A stretch of 64,000 nt of DNA from an uncultured Oscillochloris sp. (GTDB lineage: Bacteria > Chloroflexota > Chloroflexia > Chloroflexales > Chloroflexaceae), in the NCBI GenBank assembly GCA_964555675.1, contig CAZKTU010000006.1, positions 993-64,992 of the forward strand, in the 5' to 3' direction. Positions 13,722-37,680 of the stretch are shown here, piece by piece. Below the pieces are notes generated by a model. The model was not told the DNA's origin. It made no database searches and saw only the letters and a list, made by a program, of their open reading frames with translations. The position numbers and the translations under genes were made by a program. Each line of letters starts with the position of its first letter. Position 1 is the stretch's first letter.

Positions 13722-14252
13722 CTAATCCTCGCTGCGCTCCTGGATCACATAGAGCAGCTCGAGCAGGATGTTCTTCACGCTCTGGCGGTCGGAGGCGATG
13801 CAGGGGAGCACCTTGATCTGGGCGGGCTGGCGCAGGGCCAGGCGCAGCTCGTCGGGGCTCCAGGCGTTGGGGCGGTCCTGCTTATTGGCGGCGATCACAT
13901 AGGGCGTGTCGCGGTACGAGACGAAGAAGTCGATGATGCGGTTGGTCTCGCGGAAGGTCTCTGGGCGGGTGCTGTCGACCAGGATGACCAGGCCGAGCAT
14001 ACCCTCCGAGAGGATCTCCCACATAAAATCGAACCGCTTCTGGCCCGGGGTGCCGAAGAGGTGCAGCACGAGATCGTCGGCGATAGCGATGCGACCGAAG
14101 TCCATCGCGACCGTCGTCTCTTTCTTGATCATCTTGGTATCGTCGGTCGCGCGGCGCTCGGTCGAGACGACCTCGATCTCGCTGATCGCCTTGATGAACT
14201 CGGTCTTGCCCGCGTTCACGGCCCCGCTGATAACCATTTTTACAGTCTGCAC
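13722..14252 (-). CDS. Small Ras-like GTPase (MglA/COG2229-type ATP/GTP-binding protein)
   Basis: GTG start with GGAGGG 5 nt upstream. G1 GAVNAGKT, G3 FGTPGQKRF, G4 NKQD. 176 aa. Confidence 0.85.
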   Translation of the reverse strand: MQTVKMVISGAVNAGKTEFIKAISEIEVVSTERRATDDTKMIKKETTVAMDFGRIAIADDLVLHLFGTPGQKRFDFMWEILSEGMLGLVILVDSTRPETFRETNRIIDFFVSYRDTPYVIAANKQDRPNAWSPDELRLALRQPAQIKVLPCIASDRQSVKNILLELLYVIQERSED

Positions 14253-14300
14253 ACCAGCCCTCCGCTATGGTGCTGTGCCCTGGCTGAAGCACATCGGTTG

Positions 14301-19251: not shown

Positions 19252-21438
19252 CTACTTGACCTTGCAGACGAAGCGGTAGGTCCCGTTCGGCAGGGCGATC
19301 CGCTCGACCACAGCGGTGGCGCCGCTCGGGCCGTAGTTGGGGCCGATGTGGTAGGGCCGCATCATCTCGTTGTCCTCGTGCTCGACGATGTGGCAGTGCC
19401 AGACGAAACGGCCCGGGTTCGTGAACTGCATGCGCACCCTGGTCACCTGGCCCGGGTAGGCGATCACCGTGTCCTTCCAGCCGGCCTCCCAGGCCTCGGG
19501 CCCCGTCGGCGTGCCGGCGAGTTGGGCCGGCTCGATCACCACGGCCTCGCCGTCCACATCCTCAGTCGCCAGAGGCTGGCGGTTAATCACCTGGAAGAGC
19601 ACCTCGTGGATGTGCATGGGGTGGGCGTCGGCGGTGAAGTTGTAGAACTCCCACTCCTCCACCGTGCCGACGGCCGGGTTCTCGCTGATCGGCTCGTCCC
19701 ACATCAGCGGGATCTTGTTGAAGCCCGCGTCGAAGGTGCCCAGAGCCGCCTCGACCGGGGCGTCGATCGTCGCCGTCGAGTCGTTGGGGTCGGGCGTCAT
19801 CGACATCATCTCAATCAGGGCCAGGGGCCGCACCCCGCTCGGGGCCGGCAGGGCGTTGACCTTCGGGCCGCGCAGGTACTGGGGCGGGGTGGTCTCGTCC
19901 TTGTCGTTGTCTTTGGGCTTGACAACCTTGAACTGCAGCACCCTGCCCGTGGTCTCGGGGTTGGCGCTCGCGAAGTCGACCCCGGGCACGCCGCCGCCGA
20001 AGGGCTCGTCGGGGCCGACGTTGAGCAGCTCGACCACGGCCCCGGGCTTGAGGCCGGCGAAGTCGACGATCACGTCGAGGCGCTCGGCCGGCGACATCAG
20101 CAGCTCGCTCAGCTCGACCGGCTGCGGGATAAAGCCGCCCTCGTTGCCGATCACCCAGAACTTCATGCCGGCCTGGCTGAGGCGCAGGATCAGGAAGCGC
20201 GAGTTGCAGCCGTTGAGGATGCGCAGGCGATAGCGGCGCGGCTCGACCTCGAGGAAGGGCCAGGTCTTGCCGTTGACCAGCATGGTATCGCCGAAGAACT
20301 CGGGGTTCCAGAACGGCGCAATGTCGCTGTCGGGAATGTAGGTGTTCCAGCCCTCGGGCATATCGCCGAAGTAGGCCCTGCTGTCGGGGTAGAAGAGCGA
20401 GCCGTCGGCGTTGAACGAGCGGTCCTGGATGGCCAGCGGGATCTCGCGGTAGGCCTTGCCGGGCCTGTCGCCCAGTTGCGGGGCCGGGCCGGGCAGCTTG
20501 GCCTCGTCGCCCTTGCGCTTGTCGAAGAGCCGGTCGTCGTCGCCGCCGCGCAGCATATAGAAGCCGGCGGGCCCGGCGTAGACGTTTAGCCGGGTCATGC
20601 CCAGGGTGTGGTCGTGGAACCAGAGGGCCGAGGCTCGCTGGGTGTTCGGGTACTGGAAGGTGGCGCTCCCCTTTGCCCAGACATCAGAGCTGTGGCCCAC
20701 GCGGCGCTCGCCGGCAAACTTCTCCTTGAAGAATTTGTACCAGGTGCCGTCGCTGGCGTAGCCTCGATAGGCGCCCGTCAGCTTGACGTCGGGCAGGAAC
20801 CAGGCCTCGGCGTAGCCGTCGCTCTCGTCGCCGACATCCTTTGCGCCGTGGAGGTGGGCCACGAAGGGCACCGGGCCTACGTAGCGCTCGACCACTGTGC
20901 CCGGGGCGAAGGTCGGCTCGAAGTCTTTCGGCCCGTTGCCGTAGCGCGGGTCGCTGCCCTGGGCCGGGTTGGCCCAGTGTAGAGTCGGGTCGACCGGCAG
21001 CAGGTGCGGCAGGAAGTTGCCCTTGCCGTCCTTCAGGTCGTTGACCCACTTGATGCGCACCGGCCGCTCGGTGCGGGCCTCGATGGTGAGCGACGGGAAG
21101 TTCAAGGTGCCGCCCTCGGCCACCGGCCGCGGGTCGACCAGCGAGCCAAAGCCCCAGACCGTGGTGGCCGGCAGGCCGGCCGGCAGCACCTGCTGCGTGA
21201 ACTGGCGCACCGCGATCTCGTAGTAGTCGATCGCGCGCCCCCGCCGCGAGCGCAGCCGCCCCGAGCGGGGCATGGCGGGCGGGATCACCAGGGGCGTCAC
21301 ATACTTCGCCACTGTGGTCGGGTCGAGGGCCGCTTGCTTCAGGGTCGCCGAGAAGACCTTCGTCACGTTGCCCCGCTGCGTGGTGAGCAAGAGGGCGCTT
21401 CCGGCCAGGCCGAGTTTGAGGAACGTCCGACGTTTCAT
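19252..21438 (-). CDS. Tat-exported multicopper oxidase (CotA/bilirubin-oxidase-like)
   Basis: Start MKRRTFLKLGLAG (twin-arginine) with GGGGGAG 4 nt upstream. Copper motifs HLHG, WFHDHT, HPMHIHE and HCHIVEHEDNEMM. Confidence 0.88.
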   Translation of the reverse strand: MKRRTFLKLGLAGSALLLTTQRGNVTKVFSATLKQAALDPTTVAKYVTPLVIPPAMPRSGRLRSRRGRAIDYYEIAVRQFTQQVLPAGLPATTVWGFGSLVDPRPVAEGGTLNFPSLTIEARTERPVRIKWVNDLKDGKGNFLPHLLPVDPTLHWANPAQGSDPRYGNGPKDFEPTFAPGTVVERYVGPVPFVAHLHGAKDVGDESDGYAEAWFLPDVKLTGAYRGYASDGTWYKFFKEKFAGERRVGHSSDVWAKGSATFQYPNTQRASALWFHDHTLGMTRLNVYAGPAGFYMLRGGDDDRLFDKRKGDEAKLPGPAPQLGDRPGKAYREIPLAIQDRSFNADGSLFYPDSRAYFGDMPEGWNTYIPDSDIAPFWNPEFFGDTMLVNGKTWPFLEVEPRRYRLRILNGCNSRFLILRLSQAGMKFWVIGNEGGFIPQPVELSELLMSPAERLDVIVDFAGLKPGAVVELLNVGPDEPFGGGVPGVDFASANPETTGRVLQFKVVKPKDNDKDETTPPQYLRGPKVNALPAPSGVRPLALIEMMSMTPDPNDSTATIDAPVEAALGTFDAGFNKIPLMWDEPISENPAVGTVEEWEFYNFTADAHPMHIHEVLFQVINRQPLATEDVDGEAVVIEPAQLAGTPTGPEAWEAGWKDTVIAYPGQVTRVRMQFTNPGRFVWHCHIVEHEDNEMMRPYHIGPNYGPSGATAVVERIALPNGTYRFVCKVK

Positions 21439-21803
21439 TACACTCCCCCCGTTATGAGTTGCCAGGGCAGGGGCTGAGCAGCACGACAAAATACCCGCCG
21501 GATCGCCTGTATCTGGTGCGATCGGCAGGTAGAGTGGTGTGTCGTGATGCGCCTGCCCGGACGCCCGCCCTCACCACAGAGTCTGTATCCACGACGCCGT
21601 CAGTCTCCCCAACTGCCGGCGCCGCATCCTGGTTCAGCCTGTGATTTGTTTGGGTGTCGTAGCAGTAGTATAAAGAGCAATGGGCCGGTAAAAGTTAAGG
21701 CTGTTCAATAAGAAATTAGATCATGTGCACATAGTATATATAAATCCAGTGGCAATGCTTTTGCGTTTCGTTTTGCACACAGAATATTCGGCGCATGGGT
21801 TTG

Positions 21804-23514: not shown

Positions 23515-23886
23515 CTACCCGGTCGGCACCAGGCGCAGCCGTGGCGCGCTGAAGCTTAGCACCCGCTCGGCCTGATGATCCGTGCCGCCAAAGTCGGGGG
23601 TGAGCACCACCGAGTTGTCGCCGCCGTAGGCGTTCGGCTCGTAGCGGTCGGCCTGCCAGTCGTTGTGCCACTCGCTCCCGTCGAAGAGATAGCGGTACTG
23701 ATAGGCCTTGCCGGGCTCGAGCTCGAGGGTCGCCATCCAGCCGCGCTCGGTCTGCCGCAGGGGCGTGGCCCGCTCGTCCCAGTCGTTGAAGTCGCCCACC
23801 ACATAGATCGTATCGGCCCAGACGGCTGCGGGCATGGCGAATGTGACGCGAACTTTGCCGTTGGGCCCGGGGCGTTTCGTAATCAT
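23515..23886 (-). CDS. Stand-alone CBM48 / AMPK-beta glycogen-binding-like (isoamylase N-terminal early-set) domain protein
   Basis: Start MITKRPG with AAGGAG 7 nt upstream. VRVTFAMPA..ADTIYVVGDFNDWD...W.ATLELEPGKAYQYRYLFDG.W.ND is characteristic of CBM48/E-set domains. Confidence 0.7.
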   Translation of the reverse strand: MITKRPGPNGKVRVTFAMPAAVWADTIYVVGDFNDWDERATPLRQTERGWMATLELEPGKAYQYRYLFDGSEWHNDWQADRYEPNAYGGDNSVVLTPDFGGTDHQAERVLSFSAPRLRLVPTG

Positions 23887-23982
23887 CGCGCTACTCCTTT
23901 GTTGCGCGGCGTCGACCCCGTTGTCTCCGCCTTCGGCGAGATTATAGCATGGCGCCCCCGCCAAACCCAGTGAGAAGATTCT

Positions 23983-26487
23983 CTAGTGCAATTTAAATAT
24001 TGTCACCTCATCCTGCTCGAAGACCGGATCGCCCAGGGCGCCGAACTTGGCCAGGGCCTCGGGCCCGTAGAGGTTGCGCTCGAGCCCGCCCACATAGACA
24101 TAGTCTACGCCGTACTTGTTCAGCAGCTCGCGGGCCTGGCCCGCGTCGGCCCCGCGGAAGATCGCGTCGACGTCGGCGCAGCGCGGCGCCAGCTCGGCGC
24201 GGGCCGTCGGGTCGCCGCCGCGCCACTGCTCCTGGTGGCCCTTCCAGCCCAGCACCGTGGGCAGCCCTGTGGCCGCCGCGACCCCGGCGAAGCCCTCGCC
24301 GTTATAGCTCCCGCCGCACTGTGGCGCGACGCCCTGGCTCGCCACGTCGGCCGCGTTCAGCACGGCCACGGCCTCGAGCACCACGCTGCCGGGGGTGGCC
24401 CGCTCGCGCAGCCACTGGATCGAGGCCTCGCCGGCCGCCGTCAGCTCGCGCGGGGTGCGCCCGTCGAGCCCGACCGCCTCGCCGCGCCCCAGCTCGCCCA
24501 GGGCCAGCCAGGGGTAGACCAGGGCGCCCGCGAGCAGGGCCGCGCTCACCCCCGCCGCGCCCCAGGCCACCGGCCGCAGCCGCCCGGCCGCGTAGCGCAG
24601 GCACCACCAGAGGGCGAAGGGTGCGAGCGTGCCCCACAGGAGCCAGACCTGGTAGTAGAACTTGAAGATCGTGTTCATGCGATTGCTGAACACGTCCCTG
24701 ATGAAGATCAGCTCGGTGCCGAACAGGATGGCGCAGCCGAGGGCCACGACCAGCAGCGCGAAGCACTCGCCCGGCCTGTGGGCGAGCCGCAGCGCCCGCT
24801 CGAGCGCCAGCAGCCCCACCCCCACCAGCATCAGCAGCGGGAAGCCCGCAAACAGGCCCACCAGCAGCAGCAGCGGGGGCAGCCAGACCAGGCCGGTGAA
24901 CGACGACGCGAGACCAGGCTCAGACGAGCGCGGCCGCGCCACGCTCCCCGCCGTCGGGTCTGGCTCAGGCGCCGGCCCCTGGCCCGCCAGATACACAAAG
25001 GCCAGGATCGGCACGAAGAAGAGCCCGAAGATGATCAAGAAGGCGTGGAGCTCGCTGCGCCCGTCGAGATAGGGGGCGATGATGCTCGTGAGCCGTCCGA
25101 TGATCGGCAGGTCGATCAGCGGCGCGGCCCCGCCCACCAGCGAGCGGAAGGTCAGGTGGAAGGGCAGAAAGAGCAGGTAGGCCGCCGCGACCACCACCAG
25201 CAGCGCCCGGCCCACCGTCAGCCACGGCCGAGCCTGGCCTTCCCGCAGGGTTGCCACGCTCAGGGCTGCGCCGTAGAGCAGCAGGTAAGTCGGCAGGTCC
25301 CAGCTGTTGATCGTGTACAGGCTGCCGATCACCAGCCCCGCCAGGATCAGCTCGGCTATCCCTTGCCGCCCCTGCCCCGCCGGCTCGCGGCGCGCCAGGG
25401 CCGCCAGGGCCGCCGCCGCGGCCAGGAGGCCGAAGGGCAGGGCCATCACATGCGGGTGCATGTCGCCGAGCCTGAAGCTGAACAGGGGGAACTCGGTGAT
25501 ATTGTAGCGCCGCTGGCTCGCGTCCCCGGCGTACTCGTCCCACAGCGAGCGCGATGGCCACCACCAGTTGAAGGCGGCGGCCTTGTCCTGCCGCTGCCAG
25601 CCGTCGAACTCGCCGAAGTCCTGGGCCACGGCCGGGTAGGGCAGGCTGATCGTCTCGGCGCCGCCCGCCGCCTGGCCCGCCGCCGCGAGCAGCTGACGTC
25701 CGTCGAGGGCCACGACCCGCTCGTCGCCCAGGGCGACCTGCAGGGCCCCCGACTGGTTGCCGGCCACCAGCACGAAGATCACCCCCAGCAAGGGGAAGAG
25801 CACGTAGGCCGCCCGCCCCGCCCGCCCGTCGGCGGCCATACTCATCAGATTGGCGATCGTCCCGGCGATGCCCTGGGCGGTCAGGGCGAAGATCAGGGCC
25901 AGCGAGAGGTTGTAGGCGACGGCGGGGGCCAGGCCGGTCAGCTGGGCCACGGCGGCCATCAGCAGGTAGCCGAAGTAGTAGTAGTTGACGCTGAAGCCGG
26001 CCAGCCAGGGGTCGTTGGGCGGAAAGACCCCCGAGCGCTGGATGGCGTTGAAGAAGGCGAAGTCCATCGGGCGCTCGGTGCCCCAGGGCGTCGGGTCGTG
26101 GGCCCGCATCCACACCACCGCCAGCATGGCCGCGAGGAACAGGCCCTCTGAGGCGAGGATGCTCGGCCGGCGGGCCGCGGCGAAGGCGCGTCCGCGGGCC
26201 ATGGCCTGCCGCAGCCCCCCCGGGCCCGTCAGCCCGCCCTGAGCCCAGAGGCCCAGCCCCGCCACGGCCAGGGCCGAGGCGAGCAGCGACGGCGCGCCGA
26301 AGGGCGCCAGCCCGAACATGGCCAGCAGCCAGGCCAGGTAGCCGGTCAGCAGCAGCCCCAGGGTCTTCGCGTAGGCGTAGCCTCGGTCGGGCAGGGCGCG
26401 CAGCAGCAACGCCGCCAGGGGCAGGCCGGCCAGGCCCAGCAGCTGGGCGGCGAGCCACCACTTGAGGATGTCGAGTGCCATGGACAT
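23983..26487 (-). CDS. DUF2298 / Chlor_Arch_YYY family polytopic membrane protein (single-module class)
   Basis: 834 aa with many TM helices. Motifs GTERPMDFAFFNAIQRS, SVNYYYFGY, ITEFPLFSFRLGDMHPHV, ATGLPTVLGW and YGVDYVYVGGLER. Its start overlaps the upstream stop (TAATG). Confidence 0.85.
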   Translation of the reverse strand: MSMALDILKWWLAAQLLGLAGLPLAALLLRALPDRGYAYAKTLGLLLTGYLAWLLAMFGLAPFGAPSLLASALAVAGLGLWAQGGLTGPGGLRQAMARGRAFAAARRPSILASEGLFLAAMLAVVWMRAHDPTPWGTERPMDFAFFNAIQRSGVFPPNDPWLAGFSVNYYYFGYLLMAAVAQLTGLAPAVAYNLSLALIFALTAQGIAGTIANLMSMAADGRAGRAAYVLFPLLGVIFVLVAGNQSGALQVALGDERVVALDGRQLLAAAGQAAGGAETISLPYPAVAQDFGEFDGWQRQDKAAAFNWWWPSRSLWDEYAGDASQRRYNITEFPLFSFRLGDMHPHVMALPFGLLAAAAALAALARREPAGQGRQGIAELILAGLVIGSLYTINSWDLPTYLLLYGAALSVATLREGQARPWLTVGRALLVVVAAAYLLFLPFHLTFRSLVGGAAPLIDLPIIGRLTSIIAPYLDGRSELHAFLIIFGLFFVPILAFVYLAGQGPAPEPDPTAGSVARPRSSEPGLASSFTGLVWLPPLLLLVGLFAGFPLLMLVGVGLLALERALRLAHRPGECFALLVVALGCAILFGTELIFIRDVFSNRMNTIFKFYYQVWLLWGTLAPFALWWCLRYAAGRLRPVAWGAAGVSAALLAGALVYPWLALGELGRGEAVGLDGRTPRELTAAGEASIQWLRERATPGSVVLEAVAVLNAADVASQGVAPQCGGSYNGEGFAGVAAATGLPTVLGWKGHQEQWRGGDPTARAELAPRCADVDAIFRGADAGQARELLNKYGVDYVYVGGLERNLYGPEALAKFGALGDPVFEQDEVTIFKLH

Positions 26488-29400
26488 TATGGCCCTAATT
26501 CTATGAGCAGTTTGCGCGCATCGCCGGCCCAGGGGCCGGCGGGCGCAAGCTGGAGGTAGCTCTCGAGGGCGGCCGTGGCCCGCGCGGCGTCGCCGGTGCG
26601 GGCGAAGAGCCGCCCGAGCTGGTAGTAGGGGTCGGGCGCCCGCGAGTCGGCGGCGATGGCCTGGCTGAGGGCGATCTCGGCCTTGTCCAGCTGGCCCCAG
26701 TCGATCAGGCCGGCGCCCAGTTTGTTCCAGTTGGCCGCCGAGGGCTCGGCCTGGGCCGCGAGCATAAAGGCCTCCTCGGCCTCGTCATAGCGGCCCGCCT
26801 CGGCCAGAATATCGCCCCACAGGTGCAGCACGCCGATGTCGCGCGGGTTGGCCCGCGCCGCCGGCTCGAGCACCGCCGCCGCCTCGGCCAGACGCCCTTG
26901 CGCGCGGTAGCGCTCGGCCAAGCCGAAGGCCGTGGGGCCGTCGGTCGGGTTGGCCCTGTTGGCCTCCTCGAACTCGCTGAGGCCGGCCGGCGGCTCGCCC
27001 AAGGGCAGCGGTCTGGGCTGCTGCTGCTCGGCCGCCGCGAAGTCGAAGGGGTCAGGGCGGGCATAGTCGGCCGGCACGCCCGTCACGGCGTAGATCTGGG
27101 CGCCCGGGGCCTCGAAGACCGGCTGCAGGTAGGTGCCGCGCATCTGCTCGAACTTCGCCAGCCCCGCCGCCGGGTAGACCGCTCGCTCGACCCCGCCCAC
27201 ATAGACATAGTCGACCCCGTAGCGGGCCAGGAAGCGCAGGGCGGTCTCGATATCAGCGCTGCGGTAGAACGCGTCCACATCGGCGTCGCGCCGCGCGGCT
27301 GCGTCGGCGGCCCGCTGCTCGTTGACGTGTAGGGCGCTGACCACGGTCGGCAGGCCCGTGTTGGCGGCGATGCGGATGCCGTAGCCCCTGTAGAAGAACA
27401 GGTTCGACTGCACGACCACGGGCGTGCCCTTGATCGTGTCGTTGAGCCACTTGATCGCGGCGGCATCGCCCCGCAGGTCGATCATCACCGTGCCCATGCC
27501 CGGCTCGCACCCGCCGAAGGCCGCGCAGTCATACGCAAATTCGGTCTGCTCCATGAAGGCCAGGCCGTCGAGGGTCGGACCGGTGTTCACGGGGAAGCGG
27601 TTGCTGATCCGCGAAGGCACCGCCGCCAGCAGGTAGAGCGCCGCCAGGATCGCCGGCAGGGCCATGGCCGCCAGGCCCGCCCACTGGGCCCGGGCGCCCC
27701 CCAGGCGGTGCAGGCCGCGCAGCAGGGTCGGCAGGCTGGCCGCCGCAGCCAGGGCCAGCAGCACCCAGACCTGCAGCCCGAACTTGAAGACGGTGTTCAT
27801 GCGGTACCAGTCGCCGCCGGCCAGGTGATCCTTGATGTAGATCAGCTCGATGCCGAGCGAGACCGCCCAGCCGACCCAGGCCATGAGTAAGGCGAACCAG
27901 ATCGGCGCGCCCAGGGCGCGGCGCGGCAACAGGGCCAGCCCCGCGATCAGCAGCGCGGCCAGCACCAGGCGCAGCCCGAGGGCCGGGGCGAGGGCGGCCA
28001 CGCCAAGGGCGCCTACGGCCGCCAGGGCCAGCCACAGGTTCGGCCCCGCCAGCGGCGCGCTCCTGATCCCCAAGGCGGCGGCCGGCCGCCCACTTGTGGC
28101 GCCCTTGCGCCTGCTCGCGCGCCAGATGGCCCCGCCGAGCGCCGGCAGCAGCACCGCCGCGAACACCCCGTAGATCAGCAGGTAGTCCCGCAGTAGGGTG
28201 CCGTCGGCCCACTCGACCCTGCCGATGCCGCCGACCGGCGCCCAGTAGCGGTCGAAGAAGGGCGCAAAGAGGGCCAGCCCGCCCAGCCCTATGCCCAGCG
28301 CCAGCAGGGCGGCCTGCGTCAGCCCGCCCCACGGGATGCTCGCAAAGCCCTTTGCCGCGCCGCGAGGCCTGCGCCAGGCCGCGCCCAGCATGGTCAGGCC
28401 CATCAGCAGCCCGTAGGTCGGGAAGTCCCACGAGTTGGTCACAGCCAGTGTGCCCAGCGACAGGGCCAGCAGCAGGGGCGCGGCGCGCCGTAGGGGCCGC
28501 GCCGCCCGCGCCACCAGGCTGTAGCAGAGCGCCGCCACCAGGATGGTGATCGGCAGGGCGATCATGTGGGGGTGCAGGTCGGCGAAGAGGAAGGTGAAGG
28601 CCGGGAACTCGTTGATCGTGTTCGGGATGACCCGGCTCGGCCCGATGTACCAGTCGCCCAGGCGCTCGCCGAGGCCTTGCAGCCCGCCGTCGCCCAGGGC
28701 CGTCGCCACCGCGCCGAAGCCCCGCGACGAGCCCGCCGCGAAGAAGGCCGTCAGGTTGCCCGCCAGCCCGACCAGCCCCGCGGCCAGCAGCCCGTAGCGC
28801 CCTCGCCCGGTCATCTGCCGCACCAGGGCGAAGGCCCCCGCCAGGGTCAGGCCGAAGGCCGTCGCCACCGCCAGGTTGAAGCCCACCGCCGGCGCGATGC
28901 CCGTAGCCTTGATCGGCAGCGACATCAGGTACAGGCCATAGTAGTAGTAGTTGATGTAGCCGCCGCTGAAGAAGGGGTCGTAGGGCGGCATCACCGGGCT
29001 GCGCAGGATGGCGTTGAGGAAGCCGAACTCCATCGGCTTCTCGCCGCCCCAGACGGGGTGCCACAGGTCGGGGTTGAGCGCCCGCACCAGGGCCAGGGCC
29101 GCAAACCCCGCCAGGAACACCGCCTCGCCCCAGAGCACGCTCCGCCCCTTGGCGCGCAGGCCGTCGGCCAGGGCCATCAGGCCCGCCATGATCGGTTGCG
29201 CTGCCCGCTCGTCGCGAGCACCCTCGGCGAGCGTCTGCTCCTCGGCGTCGCTCGTCGGTCCCTGCGCGGTGCTCCCAGGCTCCTGCTCGGCCGCCCGGCG
29301 CCCCAGCCGCCACAGGATCCCGGCGTTGATCGCCATCACGATGAGCAGCCCGCCCAGCAGGCCCCAGCCGTCGTAGCGCCAGAGCCCCAGGCTCGTCGGC

Positions 29401-32400
29401 AGCCACACGGCGTAGCCCAGCAGCAACAGCCCGATCAGCCTCGCCCAGACGGCCCCGCCATCGCGCCACCCGCCGAACACGGCGTAGGCTGCGGGCAGCC
29501 CCAGCAGACTCATTGCGTAGAAGAAGGCCAGCCAGAACAGCGTCGAGAGCAACGAGCTATCGCGGATCAGGCTGTTCCAGGCGTACTCGTCCACAGCCGG
29601 CAGCTCGTTCACCGGCCGGTCGAGCATCAGCGGCGGCGGCGTGTCGAGCTCGGGCGCGACCACGGGCAGGTCGCTCGTCAGCATGCGCGGCGTGTCTGGT
29701 TCGATCACCCGGTAGATCGCCGTCTGACCCTGCTGGAAGACCCGCTCGAGCGTCCCCTCGCCCGCCATGGCCTCGAACTTTGCGATACCCAGCGGGTCGT
29801 AGGTGCTGCGCTCGACGCCGCCCACGTAGACATACGCCACGCCGTACTGGCGCAGCAGCTCGCGGGCCGTGCCCGCGTCGGGCGTATTGTAGATCGTGGC
29901 GATGCTCTGCTGGCGATTGGCGATCGTCGGCCCCGCGCCCACGACGTTGCGCTGCTGGATCTGGTGCCACTCCCAGCCGAGTAGCGTCGGCAGCCCCGTG
30001 TTGGTCGCCACGCGCCCCGCCCACTGGTACGAGGGTAGGTGGGCTTCGAGGATCACCGGCGTGCCGCTCACTTCGCGCTGCAGCCAGTCGATCGCCGCCG
30101 CGTCCTCGTCGAGCGAGAAGGGCTGGCCCTGGGCCGCGGCGCTCACCGCGCTCATGTAGGCCGCCCCGTCGAGCCCGCGCGGCGCGCTGGCGACCCAGCG
30201 GTCGCCCGCCCGGGCCGGGGTCGCCGTCAGCGGGTAGACCAGGGCCGCCGCCGCCAGCAGGGCCAGCCCGCCCCGCACCAGGTAGCGCGCGCGCCCTGTG
30301 AGCGACCACAGCCCCGGCAGCAGGGCCGCCAAGCCCAGGGCGAAGAGGGTCCAGGCGTGCAGCCCGAACTTGAAGACCGTGTTCATGCGCCCGATGTCGC
30401 CCTTGACCGCCACCAGCTCGACCATGGCCGTCAGGCCCAGGGCCGCCGCCAGCCAGAGCCCCGGCAACAACGCCGCCAGGGGCGCCCGTCGCATGCGCCA
30501 GACGAGCCAGGCCGCGCCCGCCAGGCTCGGCAGCAGCAGCACGATCGCCGGCCAGCCCAGGGCCACGCCCGCCAGGTAGACCAGGCCGAAGGCCCCGGCC
30601 GCCGCGATGGCCACGCTGGGCCCGACCAGGCGCCGCACCAGCAGCAGGCCGAGCGTGGCGGCGATCAGCAGCCAGTGGCCATAGAGCTGGGTCAGCTCCC
30701 ACATACTTGTGCGCTGGGCCAACAGCAGCTTCGCCCCCAGGGTCGGGGCCAGGCCCTCGATCCACAGCTCGACCCCCGACGACTCGGTGGCGAAGTTCGC
30801 GGTGAAGGGCGCGAAGAGCAGGTTCCCCAGGGCCAGCATCAGCAGGGGCGGCCCGGCCACCAGGGCCAGCCGCCAGGGCCAGCGCAGCCCGCCGCGCCCC
30901 GCCCGCCACCCGGCCCCCGCCATGGTCAGGGCCGCCAGGCCCACGAAGGTCGGGTAGTCCCAGGTGTTGGTCGCCCGGATCGCGCCCGCCAGCAGCCCCA
31001 TCAGCAGGAGGCAGACCGCGGGCCGTACGAAGCGCTCGCCGAGCGACGCGCCCGCGCGCCAGCCGCCGCCCAGCAGCCAGCGGGCGAAAGCGAAGGCCAG
31101 CCCCAGCAGGGCCAGGCTCAGGGGCATGACGATCATATGGGCGTGCAGGTCGCCGAAGAGGAAAGTGAAGAAGGGGAACTCGTTGACCGTGCCGGCCACG
31201 ATCCGCGTCGCGTCCCAGTAGGCCCACTCGCCGCGCCCCTGCGCCCACTGCTCCCAGGCGTAGCCGCTGAGGAACCAGAAGGCCTGGGCCAGGTTGCCCG
31301 CCAGCAGCAGCAGCGCCGGCGCCAGGCCCGCCGCGACCAGGGCGCGACGCTCGCGGGGCGCTGCGTCCCCGTCCCTGCGCGCCGCCATCAGGTTGTAGAC
31401 GACACCCCAGGCCCCCAGGGCGGTGAGCCCGAAGAGGGTGGCCACCGCCAGGTTGTAGGCGATGCTCGGCACAATCGTCGTCAGGTGGGTCAGGGCACCG
31501 ACCAGGACGAAGCCGAAGTAGTAGTAGTTGATGTAGCCGCCCGCGTGCCAGGGGTCGTAGGGCGGGAAGGCCGCGCTGCGCAGCACCGCGTTGAGGAAAG
31601 CCAGCTCCATGGGCTTTTCGCCGCCGCGGGCCGGGTGCCACAGGTCGGGGTTCAGCCAGCGCAGCAGCAGGCCGATCAGCAGGAAACCCAGGAACACCGC
31701 TTCGGCGCCCAGCAGCGCGCCCCGTCGCTCGCGCCCGAACGCGCGCAGCTCGGCCCGATTCAGCCAGGCGGCCGCGGCGCCCACGGCCAGCAGCGGCGCG
31801 GCGCAGAGCCACACAGTCGCCGGCGTGAAGGCCAGCGGGAAGGGCCCCCACCCGATCGCGCCGAGGTTGCCCTGCCCGGGCACGCCCACGTTCGTCCCGA
31901 GGCTGCCCGCCAGCCAGGCCCCGTAGGCCACGCCCAACAGCCCGAGGATCTTGCTCAGGCTGTAGCCGCGGTCGGGCAGCCAGGGCAGCAGCCTGTAGAG
32001 CAGGGCGAAGGTCGCCAGGCCCAGTAGCTGCAGCACGGCCAGCCAGACCACCGGCGCGGCGAGGTTGACCCAACTCGCCCGGTTGAACATGCTCGCCCAG
32101 GTGCCGGCGGCGCTGTAGAGCGGCCACTGGCTGTCGGTCAGGCGCAAGGCCGTCGGGTTGCGGTCGGCGATGCGCACGGGCGACTTATAGACCTCGCCCC
32201 AGAGCGTATCGTCGGTGATCAGGGCCTCGGCTCGCTCGCGCGAGTAGGCCGCGGTCTTCTCGAAGATCAGCACCCGCGGGTGATCGTAGACGTGGAAGGC
32301 CTCTTCGGCGGACTGGTCGGGGATCTCGATGCCCAGGATGCTCGGGTACGAGGTCACCTCGGCGGCCAGCTTGAAGCCCAGTTCGCCGCTGAAGAGGTGG

Positions 32401-34397
32401 TGGTAGTAACGCATCAGGGCCGGGTAGCGCATGCGCAGGCGCGAGGTGCTGTCGTAGACCCGGTTGCTGGTCAGCGTGATATAGTCGGCCCGGTCGAGCT
32501 GGTCGAGCAGCCCCTCTTCGACGTTGCCGTCGGCGCCCAGCGCCCCCACGTATTTACGCGGTTCGTCCTCGGCGTAGGGCGCCGAGCCGATCCCGCGGAA
32601 GGTCGAGTCCCAGGACGCGCTGGTCACCTGCAGCGGCAGCGCGTCGTCCCAGATCTCCGAGATCACATACGAGCCGGGCCGGCCGTGGTCGGCCAGCCAC
32701 TGGGCGGCCATGACCCGCGAGTGGGGCAGCGTGTAGATGCGCGAGAAGGCGTAGGCCCAGCCGAGGGTGGCGATCAGGACGAGGGGCAGGGCCAGGCCGG
32801 CGAGCCGGCGGAGGCGCGGCCAGGCCCCGGGCGCCCGCCGTCGCTCCCACAGCCGGACCAGCCCCCAGGCCCCGAAGATGATCAGGCCGCCGTAGATCGG
32901 CAGCAGGTAGCGCAGCGTGATCGCGAACTGGTTGCCCTGCCAGGCGAAGTAGAAGGCCACCCAGGCGAACAGCACCCAGGCCGGGCTCAGGGGCGGCGCG
33001 TCGGGGCGCGGCCAGAGTAGGCGCCTGAGGCCCGCCAGGGCGAAGGCCGCGAGCCCGGCCCAGGCGGCCAGGCCCAGGGCCGGCCCCATGCCCCAGCGCA
33101 CCATGTTCACCCAGGGGAAGATGTAGGCCGGGCGCCAGACCCACTGTTGCGAGGGTGGGAAGTCGAGTTCGCCGCTCACCAGGCCTTGCACGGCCCCCAG
33201 GTTGGCCAGGAAGCGCGGCTCGGGGCGTACGTCGAGGAAGCCGGCGCCCTGCAAGAAGCCGAGCGTCTCGCTCACCACGGGCGAGTCGGCGCGCGAGCCG
33301 ATGAACGAGTCGGGGGCGAGGGTGCGGAAGCTCAGCAGGGTCAGGGCCCCGGCCAGCACCAGCAGCGGCAGCTCGCGCAGAAAAAAGTGGTCCACCACTG
33401 AGGCCGCGCGGGCCCGGCTGGTCGGCTGCCAGCGGCCGCGCGAGGGCTGGTCGGGGTAGTAGCGGCCCGCTTCCTCGGGCGCAGCGGCCGGCTCGGCGCT
33501 TGCGGCGGCCCGCAGCGCGCGGGCGGCCGCGACCACGGCGGCCACGATCGCGACGCCGCCCAGGGTGGCCAGGGTGATGCGGTTGGCCATGGCCGCGCCG
33601 ATGCTCAGGCCGAGCAGGCTGTAGGCGAGCCAGCCGCCGCCCTGGGCGACGCGCACGGCCCAGTAGAGGCTCAGCAGGCAGAAGAAGGTCGAGAAGATCG
33701 GGTCGACGAAGAAGTGCGACTGCTGGATGTGCATCACGGCCAGGGCTGCCAGCATGGCCGCGACCAGGCCGACGCGCCGGCCGAAGAGGCGGCCCCCGAT
33801 CAGAGAGACCAGCACGATCGAGCCCAGGTCGAAGAGCACGGCTAGGCCGCGCCCCACCTTCTGGATCTCGCCGTAGGTGGTCATGTTGATGCCGTCGGGG
33901 TTGAAAATCCACTGCAGAGGCGTCAGCTTCGGGAAGCTGCGCTCGGGGTTCGGCACGAGGTCGCCGTAGTCGGTGCGCAGATCGTTCGGGCGCGTCGGGT
34001 CGAGGCCGCTGCGTGGCGGGCCGTTGAGACTCCGCACCTCTGTGGGCATGGCCTCGCTGGGGGTCAGGGCGACGGCGACGGCCCGCGTGATCAGCTGGGG
34101 GAAGGGGCCGTAGACATAGAGCGGGAAGCGGTCATAGTTGCGCGGGTTCATCGGCGAGCGGGCCGAGTCGTACAGCTCGCCAGGCCCTGCCGGCAGGCGC
34201 ATCGTCGAGGCGACGTCCGAGAAGAAGCGCTCGTCGGGGTGCTGGCCGGTGCCGGAGTCCCAATCGCTCAGGCTCAGGGTTCGAAAATAGGCCCCGAGAA
34301 GCACGATGCAGGCCAGGAGCAGCCATGGCGCCCAGACGGCCGCCACACGTTTCAGGCCGCCGCTCGCGCCGGGCCCGGAGGGATGTTCGATCTCCAC
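26487..34397 (-). CDS. Giant polytopic membrane protein: GT39/ArnT-like N-terminal region + 2 x Chlor_Arch_YYY (DUF2298) modules + C-terminal TPR repeats
   Basis: Uninterrupted 2636-aa ORF with GTG start. N-region aa 1-760 (nt 32118-34397). Module 1 aa 775-1565 (nt 29703-32075, GGYINYYYFGF). Module 2 aa 1610-2440 (nt 27078-29570, GGYINYYYYGLY). TPR aa 2480-2625 (nt 26523-26960). Confidence 0.85.
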   Translation of the reverse strand: MEIEHPSGPGASGGLKRVAAVWAPWLLLACIVLLGAYFRTLSLSDWDSGTGQHPDERFFSDVASTMRLPAGPGELYDSARSPMNPRNYDRFPLYVYGPFPQLITRAVAVALTPSEAMPTEVRSLNGPPRSGLDPTRPNDLRTDYGDLVPNPERSFPKLTPLQWIFNPDGINMTTYGEIQKVGRGLAVLFDLGSIVLVSLIGGRLFGRRVGLVAAMLAALAVMHIQQSHFFVDPIFSTFFCLLSLYWAVRVAQGGGWLAYSLLGLSIGAAMANRITLATLGGVAIVAAVVAAARALRAAASAEPAAAPEEAGRYYPDQPSRGRWQPTSRARAASVVDHFFLRELPLLVLAGALTLLSFRTLAPDSFIGSRADSPVVSETLGFLQGAGFLDVRPEPRFLANLGAVQGLVSGELDFPPSQQWVWRPAYIFPWVNMVRWGMGPALGLAAWAGLAAFALAGLRRLLWPRPDAPPLSPAWVLFAWVAFYFAWQGNQFAITLRYLLPIYGGLIIFGAWGLVRLWERRRAPGAWPRLRRLAGLALPLVLIATLGWAYAFSRIYTLPHSRVMAAQWLADHGRPGSYVISEIWDDALPLQVTSASWDSTFRGIGSAPYAEDEPRKYVGALGADGNVEEGLLDQLDRADYITLTSNRVYDSTSRLRMRYPALMRYYHHLFSGELGFKLAAEVTSYPSILGIEIPDQSAEEAFHVYDHPRVLIFEKTAAYSRERAEALITDDTLWGEVYKSPVRIADRNPTALRLTDSQWPLYSAAGTWASMFNRASWVNLAAPVVWLAVLQLLGLATFALLYRLLPWLPDRGYSLSKILGLLGVAYGAWLAGSLGTNVGVPGQGNLGAIGWGPFPLAFTPATVWLCAAPLLAVGAAAAWLNRAELRAFGRERRGALLGAEAVFLGFLLIGLLLRWLNPDLWHPARGGEKPMELAFLNAVLRSAAFPPYDPWHAGGYINYYYFGFVLVGALTHLTTIVPSIAYNLAVATLFGLTALGAWGVVYNLMAARRDGDAAPRERRALVAAGLAPALLLLAGNLAQAFWFLSGYAWEQWAQGRGEWAYWDATRIVAGTVNEFPFFTFLFGDLHAHMIVMPLSLALLGLAFAFARWLLGGGWRAGASLGERFVRPAVCLLLMGLLAGAIRATNTWDYPTFVGLAALTMAGAGWRAGRGGLRWPWRLALVAGPPLLMLALGNLLFAPFTANFATESSGVELWIEGLAPTLGAKLLLAQRTSMWELTQLYGHWLLIAATLGLLLVRRLVGPSVAIAAAGAFGLVYLAGVALGWPAIVLLLPSLAGAAWLVWRMRRAPLAALLPGLWLAAALGLTAMVELVAVKGDIGRMNTVFKFGLHAWTLFALGLAALLPGLWSLTGRARYLVRGGLALLAAAALVYPLTATPARAGDRWVASAPRGLDGAAYMSAVSAAAQGQPFSLDEDAAAIDWLQREVSGTPVILEAHLPSYQWAGRVATNTGLPTLLGWEWHQIQQRNVVGAGPTIANRQQSIATIYNTPDAGTARELLRQYGVAYVYVGGVERSTYDPLGIAKFEAMAGEGTLERVFQQGQTAIYRVIEPDTPRMLTSDLPVVAPELDTPPPLMLDRPVNELPAVDEYAWNSLIRDSSLLSTLFWLAFFYAMSLLGLPAAYAVFGGWRDGGAVWARLIGLLLLGYAVWLPTSLGLWRYDGWGLLGGLLIVMAINAGILWRLGRRAAEQEPGSTAQGPTSDAEEQTLAEGARDERAAQPIMAGLMALADGLRAKGRSVLWGEAVFLAGFAALALVRALNPDLWHPVWGGEKPMEFGFLNAILRSPVMPPYDPFFSGGYINYYYYGLYLMSLPIKATGIAPAVGFNLAVATAFGLTLAGAFALVRQMTGRGRYGLLAAGLVGLAGNLTAFFAAGSSRGFGAVATALGDGGLQGLGERLGDWYIGPSRVIPNTINEFPAFTFLFADLHPHMIALPITILVAALCYSLVARAARPLRRAAPLLLALSLGTLAVTNSWDFPTYGLLMGLTMLGAAWRRPRGAAKGFASIPWGGLTQAALLALGIGLGGLALFAPFFDRYWAPVGGIGRVEWADGTLLRDYLLIYGVFAAVLLPALGGAIWRASRRKGATSGRPAAALGIRSAPLAGPNLWLALAAVGALGVAALAPALGLRLVLAALLIAGLALLPRRALGAPIWFALLMAWVGWAVSLGIELIYIKDHLAGGDWYRMNTVFKFGLQVWVLLALAAAASLPTLLRGLHRLGGARAQWAGLAAMALPAILAALYLLAAVPSRISNRFPVNTGPTLDGLAFMEQTEFAYDCAAFGGCEPGMGTVMIDLRGDAAAIKWLNDTIKGTPVVVQSNLFFYRGYGIRIAANTGLPTVVSALHVNEQRAADAAARRDADVDAFYRSADIETALRFLARYGVDYVYVGGVERAVYPAAGLAKFEQMRGTYLQPVFEAPGAQIYAVTGVPADYARPDPFDFAAAEQQQPRPLPLGEPPAGLSEFEEANRANPTDGPTAFGLAERYRAQGRLAEAAAVLEPAARANPRDIGVLHLWGDILAEAGRYDEAEEAFMLAAQAEPSAANWNKLGAGLIDWGQLDKAEIALSQAIAADSRAPDPYYQLGRLFARTGDAARATAALESYLQLAPAGPWAGDARKLLIELGP

Positions 34398-34516
34398 GCG
34401 TATCCTATGATCTGGGGTGCAACCCCGATAGAGTCGTCGTATGTGGGCTATGCCCGCGTAACATTATACAAAATCCCCAAGATGCCCGGGCGGGCCAAGA
34501 TGCGGGCGATCTTGCC

Positions 34517-34546
34517 TTGACAGTGCAAAATTGCTGGTGCTATACT
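34517..34546 (+). promoter_or_regulatory. Putative promoter of the SufR-like/sodA unit
   Basis: TTGACA (34517-34522), 18-nt spacer ending in TGc, TATACT (34541-34546). The spacer contains the inverted repeat GCAAaaTTGC. Confidence 0.55.
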
Positions 34547-34586: not shown

Positions 34587-35219
34587 ATGACCGCCGAGCG
34601 CAAAGAGCAGGGCTCCACTCGCCAGAGCATCCTCCAGCTTCTCCGCCGTAACGGCGAGATGACAGCCCTGGAGCTGAGCGAGCGCCTGCGCGTAGGCGCC
34701 GTCGGCGTGCGCCAGCACCTCGCCCTCCTCGAGCGCGACGGCCTCGTGCGCGTCGCAGGCCTGCGCCGGAGCGTCGGCCGCCCTTCGCACCTGTATGTGC
34801 TCACCACCGAGGCCGAGGATCACTTCCCCAAAGGCTACGATCGCCTGGCCCTCGAGATGCTCGCATACATCAACGAGCTTGGCGGCGAGTCTGCCGTAGA
34901 CCAGATCCTCGTCCGACGCCGCGACGAGCTGCTGCGCGAGTTTGGCCCCCACCTCGCCGGCAAGAGCCGTGGCGAGCAGGTCTCAACCCTGGCCGCCCTC
35001 TTGCTCGACCAGGGCTACATGTGCGAGTGGGAGCAAGAGCCCGACGGCTCGTACGTGCTCACCGAGTTCAACTGCCCGGTCGACTGTGTGGCCCGCCAGC
35101 ACCCCCAGCTCTGCGCCCAAGAGCTTCGGCTCTACCAGGATCTGCTGGGCGTGCCGGTCATCCAGGAGAGCACCATCGCCCAGGGCGCTCACTGCTGCCG
35201 CTATCGACTCCCCGCCTGA
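34587..35219 (+). CDS. SufR-like ArsR-type winged-helix regulator with C-terminal Cys cluster
   Basis: wHTH (SILQLLRRNGEMTALELSERLRVGAVGVRQHLALLERDGLV...GRPSHLY). The C-terminal segment EFNCPVDCVARQHPQLCAQEL...GAHCCRY parallels the Fe-S-binding Cys pattern of SufR proteins. Confidence 0.7.
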   Translation: MTAERKEQGSTRQSILQLLRRNGEMTALELSERLRVGAVGVRQHLALLERDGLVRVAGLRRSVGRPSHLYVLTTEAEDHFPKGYDRLALEMLAYINELGGESAVDQILVRRRDELLREFGPHLAGKSRGEQVSTLAALLLDQGYMCEWEQEPDGSYVLTEFNCPVDCVARQHPQLCAQELRLYQDLLGVPVIQESTIAQGAHCCRYRLPA

Positions 35220-35288
35220 AGCCTGGCGCTCCGTCCCATCAAGTTGACGTCGCCCTGTGTCTCCGTGTGACTACTGGAGGATCTACCC

Positions 35289-35903
35289 ATGGCCTTCGAG
35301 CTGCCGCCCCTGCCGTACGACTACACCGCCCTCGAGCCTCATGTCGATGAGGCGACGATGCACTTTCATCACGACAACCACCACAATACCTACGTCACGA
35401 ATCTGAACAACGCCCTGGCCAACTACCCCGACCTTCAGGCCAAGTCCCTCGAGGAGCTGATCAGCAACCTTGACGCCCTCCCCGAGGCCATCCGCACCGT
35501 TGTGCGCAACAACGGCGGCGGCCACTGGAACCACAGCCTCTTCTGGGAGCTGATGGCCCCCAACGCCGGCGGCGAGCCCACAGGCCCTGTGGCCGAGGCG
35601 ATCACCAAGGCCTTCGGCAGCTTCGCCGAGTTCAAAGAGAAGTTCAAGGCCGCCGCCCTCGGCCGCTTTGGCTCGGGCTGGGCCTGGCTCGTCGCCAGCC
35701 CCGACGGCAGCGTCGCAATCACCAGCACGCCCAATCAGGATTGCCCCCTGATGGAGGGCAAGCGCGCCATCCTCGGCCTCGACGTCTGGGAGCACGCCTA
35801 CTACCTCAAGTACCAGTTCAAGCGCGCCGGCTATGTCGACGCCTGGTGGAACGTGGTCAACTGGGCCAAGGTCGACGAGCTCTACGGCGCCGCCTGGGGC
35901 TAG
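35289..35903 (+). CDS. sodA: Fe/Mn superoxide dismutase
   Basis: [26 protein letters not shown] and [12 protein letters not shown] motifs. GGAGGA RBS. Confidence 0.93.
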
Positions 35904-36825: not shown

Positions 36826-37680
36826 ATGGCTCTGGTTGACGTGCTTATCCCCACCTGCGACCGCCCGACCGGCCTGGCGATCGTGCTCGCCGGCCTCCTC
36901 GGCCAGACCTTCACCGACTTCGACGTGGTGATCTCCGACCAGAGCCATGGCCGTGACCCTTTGCAGAGCGTCGAGATCCGCACCCTCGTCAAGGCCCTCG
37001 AGTGGCACGGCCATAGGGTCAGCCTCCACCGGCACCTGCCGCGGCGCGGACTGGCCGAGCAGCGCCACTTTCTGCTGAGCCAGAGTGCGGCCACCTACGC
37101 CCATTTCATCGACGACGATGTGATCCTCGAGCCGCGGGTCCTCGAGCGCATGGTGCGGGTCATCCAGCAGGAGGGCTGCGGCTTCGTCGGCTGCCCCGCC
37201 GTCAGCCTCGACTACCTGGACGACGAGCGGCCGCACGAGCAGGAGCAGCTCGAGCTCTGGGAGGGCCCGATAAGTCCCGAGCCCTTCGTGCCGGGCAATC
37301 TGCCCTGGCTGCGCCATAAAGTCAATAATGCCGCCACGCCCCTGCACCTCGAGCGGCGCCTGGTGCGTGACGGCGCACCGCTGCGCTACAAGGTCGCCTG
37401 GGTGGGCGGCGCCAATCTGCTCTTCGACCGCCAGAAGCTGCTGAGCGTCGGCGGCTTCGCGTGGTGGCCTCGTCTGCCCGCGGCCCACGCTGGCGAGGAG
37501 GTGGTCGTGCAGTTCCTACTGATCAGCCGCTACGGCGGCTGCGGCCTCCTGCCCACGGGCACCTACCACCTGGGCCTGCCCACCACGGTGACCGAGCGCC
37601 AGCGCAACGCGGTCGAGCTCTTCGGCGAGTTGCTGGCCGAGCTCGGGCCCGCCGAGGTCGAGCGCAGTGTTGGAGGCTAA
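36826..37680 (+). CDS. Family 2 glycosyltransferase
   Basis: VDVLIPTCDRP...FDVVISDQS N-terminal GT-A motif and an FIDDDV (DxD) motif. AGGGGG RBS. Confidence 0.8.
   Translation: MALVDVLIPTCDRPTGLAIVLAGLLGQTFTDFDVVISDQSHGRDPLQSVEIRTLVKALEWHGHRVSLHRHLPRRGLAEQRHFLLSQSAATYAHFIDDDVILEPRVLERMVRVIQQEGCGFVGCPAVSLDYLDDERPHEQEQLELWEGPISPEPFVPGNLPWLRHKVNNAATPLHLERRLVRDGAPLRYKVAWVGGANLLFDRQKLLSVGGFAWWPRLPAAHAGEEVVVQFLLISRYGGCGLLPTGTYHLGLPTTVTERQRNAVELFGELLAELGPAEVERSVGG

Follow-up and report, generated by a model that had tools for sequence, protein, structure and literature searches.

Two overlapping minus-strand genes in a stretch of DNA from an uncultured Oscillochloris sp. (Chloroflexales, Chloroflexaceae; assembly GCA_964555675.1, contig CAZKTU010000006.1, positions 993-64,992 of the forward strand; hereafter the window, meaning all 64,000 nucleotides (nt) of it) encode four membrane modules whose predicted structures support a glycosyltransferase C (GT-C)-like fold, and the order of the two genes is conserved across the phylum Chloroflexota. 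The giant gene specifies an N-terminal GT39-like module, two DUF2298 modules (M1 and M2), and a tail of tetratricopeptide repeats (TPR), and the solo gene that follows it specifies a single DUF2298 module (Table 1); judged by sequence, the pair is a member of the known family TIGR03662/PF10060. We regard it as somewhat probable that the pair encodes one co-expressed, outward-facing, multi-site GT-C glycosylation assembly using polyprenyl-phosphate-linked sugars. The family and both of its architectures are already catalogued under TIGR03662; added here are i) a fold assignment with an oligosaccharyltransferase-like layout; ii) the phylum-wide conservation of the fusion-then-solo pair; iii) the separation of the module classes; and iv) a recurrent neighborhood of Agl23-like and PMT_2 genes.

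The gene pair and its family

An initial annotation of the window had described two minus-strand open reading frames (ORFs) of 2636 and 834 amino acids (aa) joined at a TAATG, together 3470 aa and 16% of the window. Both ORFs are found in the ORF table at those positions and both figures are right; the overlap is confirmed at 26489-26485, where the coding strand reads GGG CCA TAA TG TCC and the giant TAA and the solo ATG have one base in common. Third-position GC is 0.94-0.95 in both ORFs (0.94 in the giant gene) and second-position GC is about 0.5, in each case matching the other recognisable genes of the window. Further ORFs of 660-860 aa overlap the pair (23986-26151 and 30039-32027 on the plus strand, and 29557-32127 on the minus strand in another frame) without the high third-position GC of the giant and solo genes; we take these other-frame and opposite-strand ORFs to be artefacts because the window has a G+C content of about 70%.

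The giant ORF was also said to consist of three parts with internal paralogy, and it does: there is one PMT_2 match, two PF10060 matches, and a TPR match, and the DUF2298 modules are 36-42% identical (pairwise 36.5%, 36.4%, and 41.9% for M1, M2, and the solo module). Each motif quoted from the giant protein lies where claimed, with HPDERFF at aa 53, GGEKPME at 925 and 1784, GGYINYYY at 953 and 1812, NEFPxFTFLFxDLHxHM at 1072 and 1929, NTGLPT at 1466 and 2346, and YGVxYVYVGGVER at 1518 and 2393; all four motifs quoted for the 834-aa protein were found as well, and the YYYxG motif occurs in all three DUF2298 modules as NYYYFG or NYYYYG.

Assignment to TIGR03662/PF10060 in both architectures is borne out by hidden Markov model (HMM) scores far above the cut-offs. 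TIGR03662 (NCBIfam 'chlor_Arch_YYY domain', cut-off 300.25) scores 1222 bits in two stretches of the giant protein and 610 bits in the solo protein, and PF10060 (DUF2298, cut-off 27.8) scores 757.9 bits (two copies) and 375 bits, respectively. TIGR03662 is described as either a single domain of 700-900 aa or an N-terminal region followed by two copies and 3-4 TPRs; both described architectures occur here, one per gene. A lenient Pfam scan of each DUF2298 module detected no second family, and no STT3 match at E-values (E) up to 10. The giant protein searched against PDB sequences matched TPR proteins only, consensus TPR proteins matching the tail at 1.9e-23.

The 'GT39-like' label of the N-terminal module means here a PMT_2-superfamily match with a D-E motif. 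The N-terminal 799 aa (nt 32000-34397) match PMT_2 (PF13231; E 3.9e-7, 30.8 bits, cut-off 26.1), the homologues of the module carry the NCBI label 'glycosyltransferase family 39 protein' (some also match PF02366), and both acidic residues of the HPDERFF loop, D55 and E56, are at least 90% conserved in 22 homologues; but PF02366, MIR, and PMT_4TMC went undetected in the module itself in a Pfam scan to E 10. Profile comparison by hhalign gave 99.4% to PMT_2 neighbor proteins and 97.3% to Agl23-like proteins, and on these alignments the N-terminal module is homologous to both; it did not score on TIGR03663, the family of Agl23.

Predicted folds, topology, and conserved residues

Modelling of the solo protein with AlphaFold2 from 58 homologues gave a predicted local distance difference test score (pLDDT) of 91.1 and a predicted template modelling score (pTM) of 0.94; the corresponding values for the N-terminal module of the giant protein were 83.0 and 0.87. 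When the solo model was compared with the PDB by Foldseek, the top 7 matches were all GT-C proteins (AglB, DPY19, and AftA, E 4.9e-5 to 1.5e-3): the AglB structures are Archaeoglobus 7e9s, 3wak, and 3waj (E 4.9e-5 to 2.9e-4), DPY19 is a C-mannosyltransferase, AftA is an arabinosyltransferase, and Pmt4 follows at rank 9. The C-terminal 165 aa of the solo model match the AglB-S2 globular domain 3vu0 with a target TM-score of 0.55 and a probability of 0.99. For the N-terminal module the top 42 matches were all GT-C, the best being AglB at 6e-9, with ALG12, STT3, ALG9, Pmt4, ArnT, PglB, DPY19, AftD, and Emb among the others. A Foldseek comparison with viral structures returned nothing at E 0.001 or better. 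The earlier proposal that these are GT-C proteins is thus upheld at fold level for both module types. As to the type of GT-C protein, the predicted architecture of the DUF2298 modules is closest to STT3/AglB rather than to ArnT or PMT, although the modules have neither a WWDYG motif nor sequence similarity to the STT3/AglB family.

Membrane topology was read by hand from the helix lists and from the distribution of Arg and Lys among the loops (positive-inside rule). The N-terminal module would have 11 transmembrane helices, with its N-terminus inside and a C-terminal soluble domain outside; each DUF2298 module would have 16, three extra helices preceding a 13-helix core, with both termini and a C-terminal globular domain outside; and the giant protein as a whole would have about 43. 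The DUF2298 helix list, a hand count, fits a 13-helix core and an outward C-terminal domain, as do the full-length AglB and 3vu0 matches. Since 16 helices give an N-out/C-out arrangement, such modules can be concatenated, and the TPR tail, predicted to be extracytoplasmic, falls outside. The conserved acidic loop had been placed after the first helix; this is so in the GT39-like module only, whereas the helix lists put the DUF2298 loop G-x-E-[KR]-P-M-[DE]...PP-x-D-P after the fourth predicted helix of each module. Three further conserved elements of DUF2298, the [TN]-E-F-P...D-x-H-x-H segment, N-[ST]-W, and R-x-N-T-x-F-K-F, all appear to lie in outward-facing loops.

We aligned 131 DUF2298 modules from the window and related loci (71 solo, 35 single-copy fusion (GD), 13 M1, and 12 M2; residues are numbered as in the solo protein). 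Conserved at 100% or nearly so in every class are E138, Y169-Y171 (96-100%), E332, P334, D342, H344, H346, N394, W396, R603, N605, T606, F608, K609, W615, G741, and E803; position 142 is D or E in 100% of modules, and conservation of D159 falls from 100% in three classes to 83% in M2. The first long outward loop (its orientation being predicted) carries acidic residues of the GT-C type in both kinds of module, D55/E56 in the N-terminal module and E138 with position 142 in DUF2298. Neither WW[DEN] nor W.D[YFW]G, the patterns used to look for a WWDYG-like motif, occurs anywhere in the giant or solo protein. Some positions are specific to class: W755 is 100% conserved in solo modules and is Q in fused ones; D598 is 100% conserved in solo and M2 modules but drops to 63% and 31% in the remaining fused classes; and the C-terminal-domain motif G-W-x-x-H-x-x-Q-W-R is degenerate in M2 (W748 in 0/12, H751 in 58%), where the membrane-core motifs are intact. 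M1 keeps all core motifs, including the equivalents of W748 and H751.

Recurrence of the pair and its neighborhood

When GTDB was scanned with one genome per species, at least 566 coding stretches turned up; the best 80 loci were taken with 10-kb flanks and annotated with HMMs built in this analysis, and 57 loci are informative. The species range described for the family is Chloroflexi and Archaea; in this set the closest relatives belong to Chloroflexales, and all but two of the 80 loci (78) bear the label Chloroflexota. In 35 of the 57 a fusion gene (GT39-like with one or two DUF2298 copies, with or without TPR) immediately precedes a solo DUF2298 gene that has the same orientation, with an intergenic gap of 65 nt or less in 27 of these 35 adjacent pairs; the same order with 0.7-4.9 kb between the genes is found at 6 loci and the reverse order at 1, and fusion and solo genes are within 5 kb of each other in 42/57. 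The counts of direct adjacency and of linkage within 5 kb strongly support the earlier suggestion that the back-to-back arrangement is meaningful. Loci other than the informative ones have too short a flank (14), have a fusion gene only (8), or have a fusion gene at which the contig ends (2). The paired form was found in Chloroflexales, Anaerolineae, Caldilineales, Thermomicrobiales, and Thermoflexales. A library-wide search yielded 9039 clusters (50% identity) at E 0.001 or better; the top 150 of these include 11 or more distinct clusters whose proteins are 2434-2744 aa long.

When each module was matched with its nearest neighbor from a different locus, both belonged to one class for 71/71 solo, 33/35 single-fusion (GD), 13/13 M1, and 11/12 M2 modules. 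By this comparison solo and fused modules are separate, ancient orthologous classes; the paralogues thus diverged long ago and each has been maintained in its own right, evidence in favor of roles that are distinct and non-redundant.

Two loci are irregular. In Oscillochloris sp. ZM17-4 (L007:2882-11966) both the TPR tail and the beginning of the solo gene (~307 aa) are absent and the giant ORF continues into the C-terminal half of the solo gene, reflecting either a real deletion that joined both genes or an assembly collapse between paralogous modules. A metagenome-assembled genome labelled Nitrosomonadaceae (L055, CAXMRF010000003.1) has an operon of epimerase, GT4, PMT_2, fusion, solo, and Agl23-like genes that is typical of Chloroflexota; this operon is probably a binning contaminant.

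Flanking ORFs were clustered without prior selection and then named by Pfam and NCBIfam. The most frequent companion is a PMT_2-like protein of TIGR03663 ('flippase activity-associated protein Agl23'), encoded at 39 loci and in most cases immediately after the solo gene; a further PMT_2 protein, in some cases with a PA14 domain, is encoded at 19 loci, in most cases immediately before the fusion gene; and flippase-like TIGR00374/LPG_synthase_TM (13 loci), GT4 glycosyltransferase (10), methyltransferase (9), and NDP-sugar epimerase/dehydratase (8) genes lie nearby. Gene ends in these neighborhoods often overlap, as in L034. Downstream of the solo gene, the first Agl23-like gene is often followed by a second, encoding a longer Agl23-like/PMT_2 protein of 1000-1500 aa (L014, L017, L018, L023, L029, L037, L045, L049, L072, L074, and L080; the L080 protein, the one member scanned, has NHL beta-propeller repeats), so that five or six consecutive GT-C-type modules would be encoded in some operons.

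No Agl23-like, PMT_2-type, or flippase-like companion ORF was found in the 64-kb window. The pair is followed there by a gene for a CBM48/CBM20-like protein and then by guaA, multicopper oxidase, mevalonate kinase, and mnmA genes. A CBM48-like gene also lies directly downstream of the solo gene in L001, L002, L007, and L013; its membership of the system is doubtful because it is confined to Chloroflexales, lacks a signal peptide, and has a promoter-like element of its own. The multicopper oxidase (19252-21489, minus strand, 745 aa, Tat-type signal) lies between guaA and mevalonate kinase and looks like an insertion, since the gene order is the same in Oscillochloris trichoides (L001) except that the oxidase gene is absent. 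Farther along, at 13722-15116 (minus strand), a small Ras/Arf-like GTPase gene lies beside a PatA_N-domain gene, a pair and order kept in L001. On the other side of the pair, 34587-35903 (plus strand) encodes an ArsR-type helix-turn-helix regulator and an Fe/Mn superoxide dismutase, divergent from the giant gene, and 37748-40141 (minus strand) encodes a 797-aa protein with a hydrophobic Flp/pilin-like N-terminus and then 7 or more PASTA-like repeats (C-[AT]-V-P-[ND]-L, spaced about 64 aa apart), with neither a kinase nor a penicillin-binding domain.

Upstream of the giant gene we read a putative extended -10-like element, TGTATAAT, directly from the sequence (a consensus promoter scan did not report it), and an AGGA Shine-Dalgarno-like element about 8 nt before the GTG. 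A near-consensus promoter, TTGACA-18-TATACT at 34517-34546, lies on the divergent ArsR/superoxide dismutase side, and the same 190-nt intergenic region holds both it and TGTATAAT. Neither between the giant and solo genes nor after the solo gene was there a convincing terminator, scan counts being at the level of shuffled sequence.

Table 1. Coordinates of the gene pair, its modules, and associated elements in the window
Feature	Position	Strand	Description
Giant gene	26487..34397	-	GTG start, 2636 aa; GT39-like module + DUF2298 M1 + DUF2298 M2 + TPR tail
N-terminal GT-C-like module, PMT_2/GT39-like	32163..34397	-	aa 1-745; D55-E56 in loop after first transmembrane helix
DUF2298 module M1	29703..32075	-	aa 775-1565; PF10060 E 2.3e-111
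DUF2298 module M2	27078..29570	-	aa 1610-2440; PF10060 E 2.6e-122
TPR tail	26505..27002	-	aa 2466-2631, ~4 repeats; Pfam and NCBIfam TPR matches
TAATG stop/start overlap of giant and solo genes	26485..26489	-	read from sequence
Solo DUF2298 gene	23983..26487	-	ATG start, 834 aa; one DUF2298 module + C-terminal globular domain
Putative extended -10-like element TGTATAAT	34463..34470	-	65 nt upstream of giant GTG; read directly
CBM48/CBM20-like protein gene	23518..23886	-	123 aa, no signal peptide; directly downstream of solo gene
Putative promoter-like element TGCTATAAT of CBM48-like gene	23941..23949	-	with AAGGAG site

Possible function and known systems

The probable role of the pair is the assembly or attachment of a cell-surface glycan, and there is a good chance that its modules are extracytoplasmic GT-C glycosyltransferases. 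In such an assembly, four catalytic modules of GT-C fold would act at the outer face of the cytoplasmic membrane, each drawing its sugar from a carrier, either polyprenyl phosphate or polyprenyl diphosphate; catalysis, possibly with bound metal, would take place at the cluster of acidic and His residues, the phosphate of the carrier would be held by the R-x-N-T-x-F-K loop, and the outward globular C-terminal domains and the TPR tail would hold the acceptor. The PMT/ArnT-like module might carry out the priming transfer, for which Ser/Thr in a secreted or envelope protein is the most likely target, after which the three non-redundant DUF2298 modules, M2 with its altered acceptor-side motif among them, could add further sugars. 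Translational coupling would supply the solo subunit in fixed proportion, as would suit a hetero-complex like Pmt1-Pmt2 or EmbA-EmbB; that the giant and solo proteins physically form one is quite conceivable, if short of probable.

Several observations weigh against an assembly of this kind: i) the GT-C assignment of DUF2298 comes from predicted structure alone, and global Foldseek TM-scores lie between 0.23 and 0.36, low values that are usual with membrane proteins of several domains but still call for caution; ii) the DUF2298 profile found nothing among PDB sequences at E up to 10, and hhalign of the 131-module profile against the GT39-like, Agl23-like, and PMT_2-neighbor profiles detected no significant relation; iii) at 15 of the informative loci the solo gene has no fusion gene before it although 5 kb or more of the upstream region is available, 8 of them in Dehalococcoidia and one in Oscillochloris trichoides (L001); iv) the window holds no recognisable gene for a polyprenyl-phosphate-sugar synthase or a flippase, and the GT2 gene 2.4 kb upstream of the pair (36826-37680) is generic; v) our literature search found no experimental or functional study of any DUF2298/TIGR03662 member; and vi) Agl23, a PMT_2-like relative of the neighbor proteins, is reported as a flippase, not a transferase (PMC11182771). 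The same paper, citing Lu et al. 2020, ties Agl23 to the use of hexose-P-dolichol in archaeal N- and O-glycosylation, and describes movement of lipid-linked oligosaccharide across liposomes by the purified protein in vitro (PMC11182771). The 'YYY domain' of the literature is an unrelated domain of hybrid two-component sensors, and was set aside.

We lean toward a protein as acceptor, tentatively and with less than even confidence, because of the AglB, STT3, DPY19, and PMT structural neighbors, the AglB-like C-terminal domain, and the Agl23 link. With the same GT-C enzymology the acceptor could instead be a cell-wall polysaccharide or lipoglycan, extended and branched by a line resembling Emb/Aft. 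This is the strongest of the alternatives, and we think it unlikely rather than remote: AftA, AftD, and EmbA/B/C are among the Foldseek matches; the Emb proteins are, as is generally known, adjacent paralogues that form heterodimers and have C-terminal carbohydrate-binding domains; in other Chloroflexota the neighboring PMT_2 proteins have PA14 domains, and the operons include GT4 and sugar-epimerase genes of the kind usual in polysaccharide clusters; and TPRs also occur in polysaccharide secretion proteins such as BcsC, a weak match here. However, the best structural matches of both module types modify proteins (AglB, STT3, DPY19, and Pmt4), the C-terminal domain of DUF2298 resembles the peptide-binding globular domain of AglB, and no Wzx/Wzy/ABC-type polymer export genes lie beside the pair in the window. 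The association with Agl23 likewise points to protein N- and O-glycosylation (PMC11182771).

A fuller version of the protein-glycosylation reading, which we consider distinctly unlikely as a whole, is that DUF2298 constitutes an unrecognised GT-C family with an STT3/AglB-like plan, a second, non-STT3 type of enzyme for transfer onto protein that Chloroflexota and Archaea have in common, and that a physically coupled extracellular line builds a glycan directly on envelope proteins together with Agl23-type proteins. Up to four GT-C sites in two polypeptides would then work sugar by sugar from polyprenyl-phosphate hexoses.

The DUF2298 modules might also translocate, scramble, or recycle lipid-linked sugars, or be non-catalytic scaffolds, leaving the GT39-like module alone as catalyst. 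GT-C folds lacking transferase activity do exist, and PIG-U, a non-catalytic GT-C-fold part of glycosylphosphatidylinositol (GPI) transamidase, is among the weaker Foldseek matches of the N-terminal module; M2, moreover, has lost part of a conserved motif. In addition, the PMT_2-like Agl23, whose relatives lie beside DUF2298 genes in 39 loci, reportedly moved lipid-linked oligosaccharide across liposomes (PMC11182771). We nonetheless find this alternative quite improbable: all four classes keep the invariant acidic, His, Arg, and Lys set expected of a catalytic, phosphate-binding site; a large outward globular domain on every module suits acceptor binding and is unneeded for flipping; and three specialised, anciently diverged paralogues are hard to square with a generic scramblase. 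Finally, the notion that the giant ORF is a decaying locus, or that mis-assembly or a missed frameshift has joined separate genes, might draw on the split or truncated versions in L006, L040, and L007, but we reject an artefactual fusion and give the notion next to no credence, since the 7.9-kb reading frame is unbroken with third-position GC of 0.94 and HMM matches colinear in one frame, at least 11 of the clusters noted above share the form, TIGR03662 is defined with this architecture, and the recurrence of GT39-DUF2298-DUF2298-TPR as a single ORF in six other genomes (L004, L005 from Chloroflexus sp. MS-G, L009, L011, L013, and L058) rules out mis-assembly.

The envelope of Chloroflexota is poorly understood; whether it has one or two membranes, and what lies outside the wall, are debated. 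The proposed glycosylation assembly turns a domain family of unknown function into a testable hypothesis, that of a divergent GT-C glycosyltransferase with oligosaccharyltransferase-like layout, usually encoded as a conserved pair of fusion and solo genes. To our knowledge a single polypeptide with three GT-C modules and about 43 inferred transmembrane helices has no parallel among characterised glycosyltransferases; should the modules act one after another, they would form a rare extracytoplasmic, membrane-embedded glycan assembly line. The recurrent Agl23-like link would tie these bacterial loci to a step of archaeal protein glycosylation whose enzymology is unsettled.

From TIGR03662/PF10060 itself the pair shows no difference. 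Among characterised systems, STT3/AglB/PglB (GT66) provide the best structural match to the DUF2298 model, covering full-length AglB as well as its C-terminal domain, and would share a 13-helix core with an outward C-terminal domain; the DUF2298 D-x-H also recalls the metal-binding second DXD-type motif of AglB. DUF2298 differs in having neither a WWDYG nor a DK/MI motif, with G-W-x-x-H-x-x-Q-W-R in place, in its three extra N-terminal helices, and in showing no sequence or profile similarity, and is not a member of GT66. The N-terminal module resembles PMT/ArnT (PMT_2; GT39/GT83) in exceeding the PMT_2 cut-off, in its conserved D-E pair in the first outward loop, in a predicted 11-helix N-in/C-out topology like that of Pmt1/2, and in the matches of its model to Pmt4, Pmt1-Pmt2, and ArnT, but its PMT_2 score is just above threshold, PF02366, MIR, and PMT_4TMC were not detected, and it is fused to two further GT-C modules. 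EmbA/EmbB/EmbC and AftA-D are likewise large GT-C proteins with outward C-terminal domains and side-by-side paralogues, including an EmbA-EmbB heterodimer, and appear among the Foldseek matches; they are, however, separate single-module polypeptides, unrelated in sequence, known only from Actinobacteria, and use decaprenyl-phosphate-arabinose as donor. Agl23/TIGR03663 (Haloarcula hispanica) has no counterpart gene in the window, and the N-terminal module lacks a TIGR03663 score; the Agl23 family is nonetheless a homologue of this GT39-like module by hhalign (97.3%) and is encoded immediately after solo DUF2298 genes in many Chloroflexota loci. TMTC1-4, the GT105 O-mannosyltransferases, are eukaryotic, and the giant protein differs from them in having no DUF1736 match and in carrying its TPR tail after three modules, not one; they share with it the succession of a PMT_2-like GT-C domain and non-cytoplasmic TPR, repeats which in TMTC are proposed to hold the acceptor protein.

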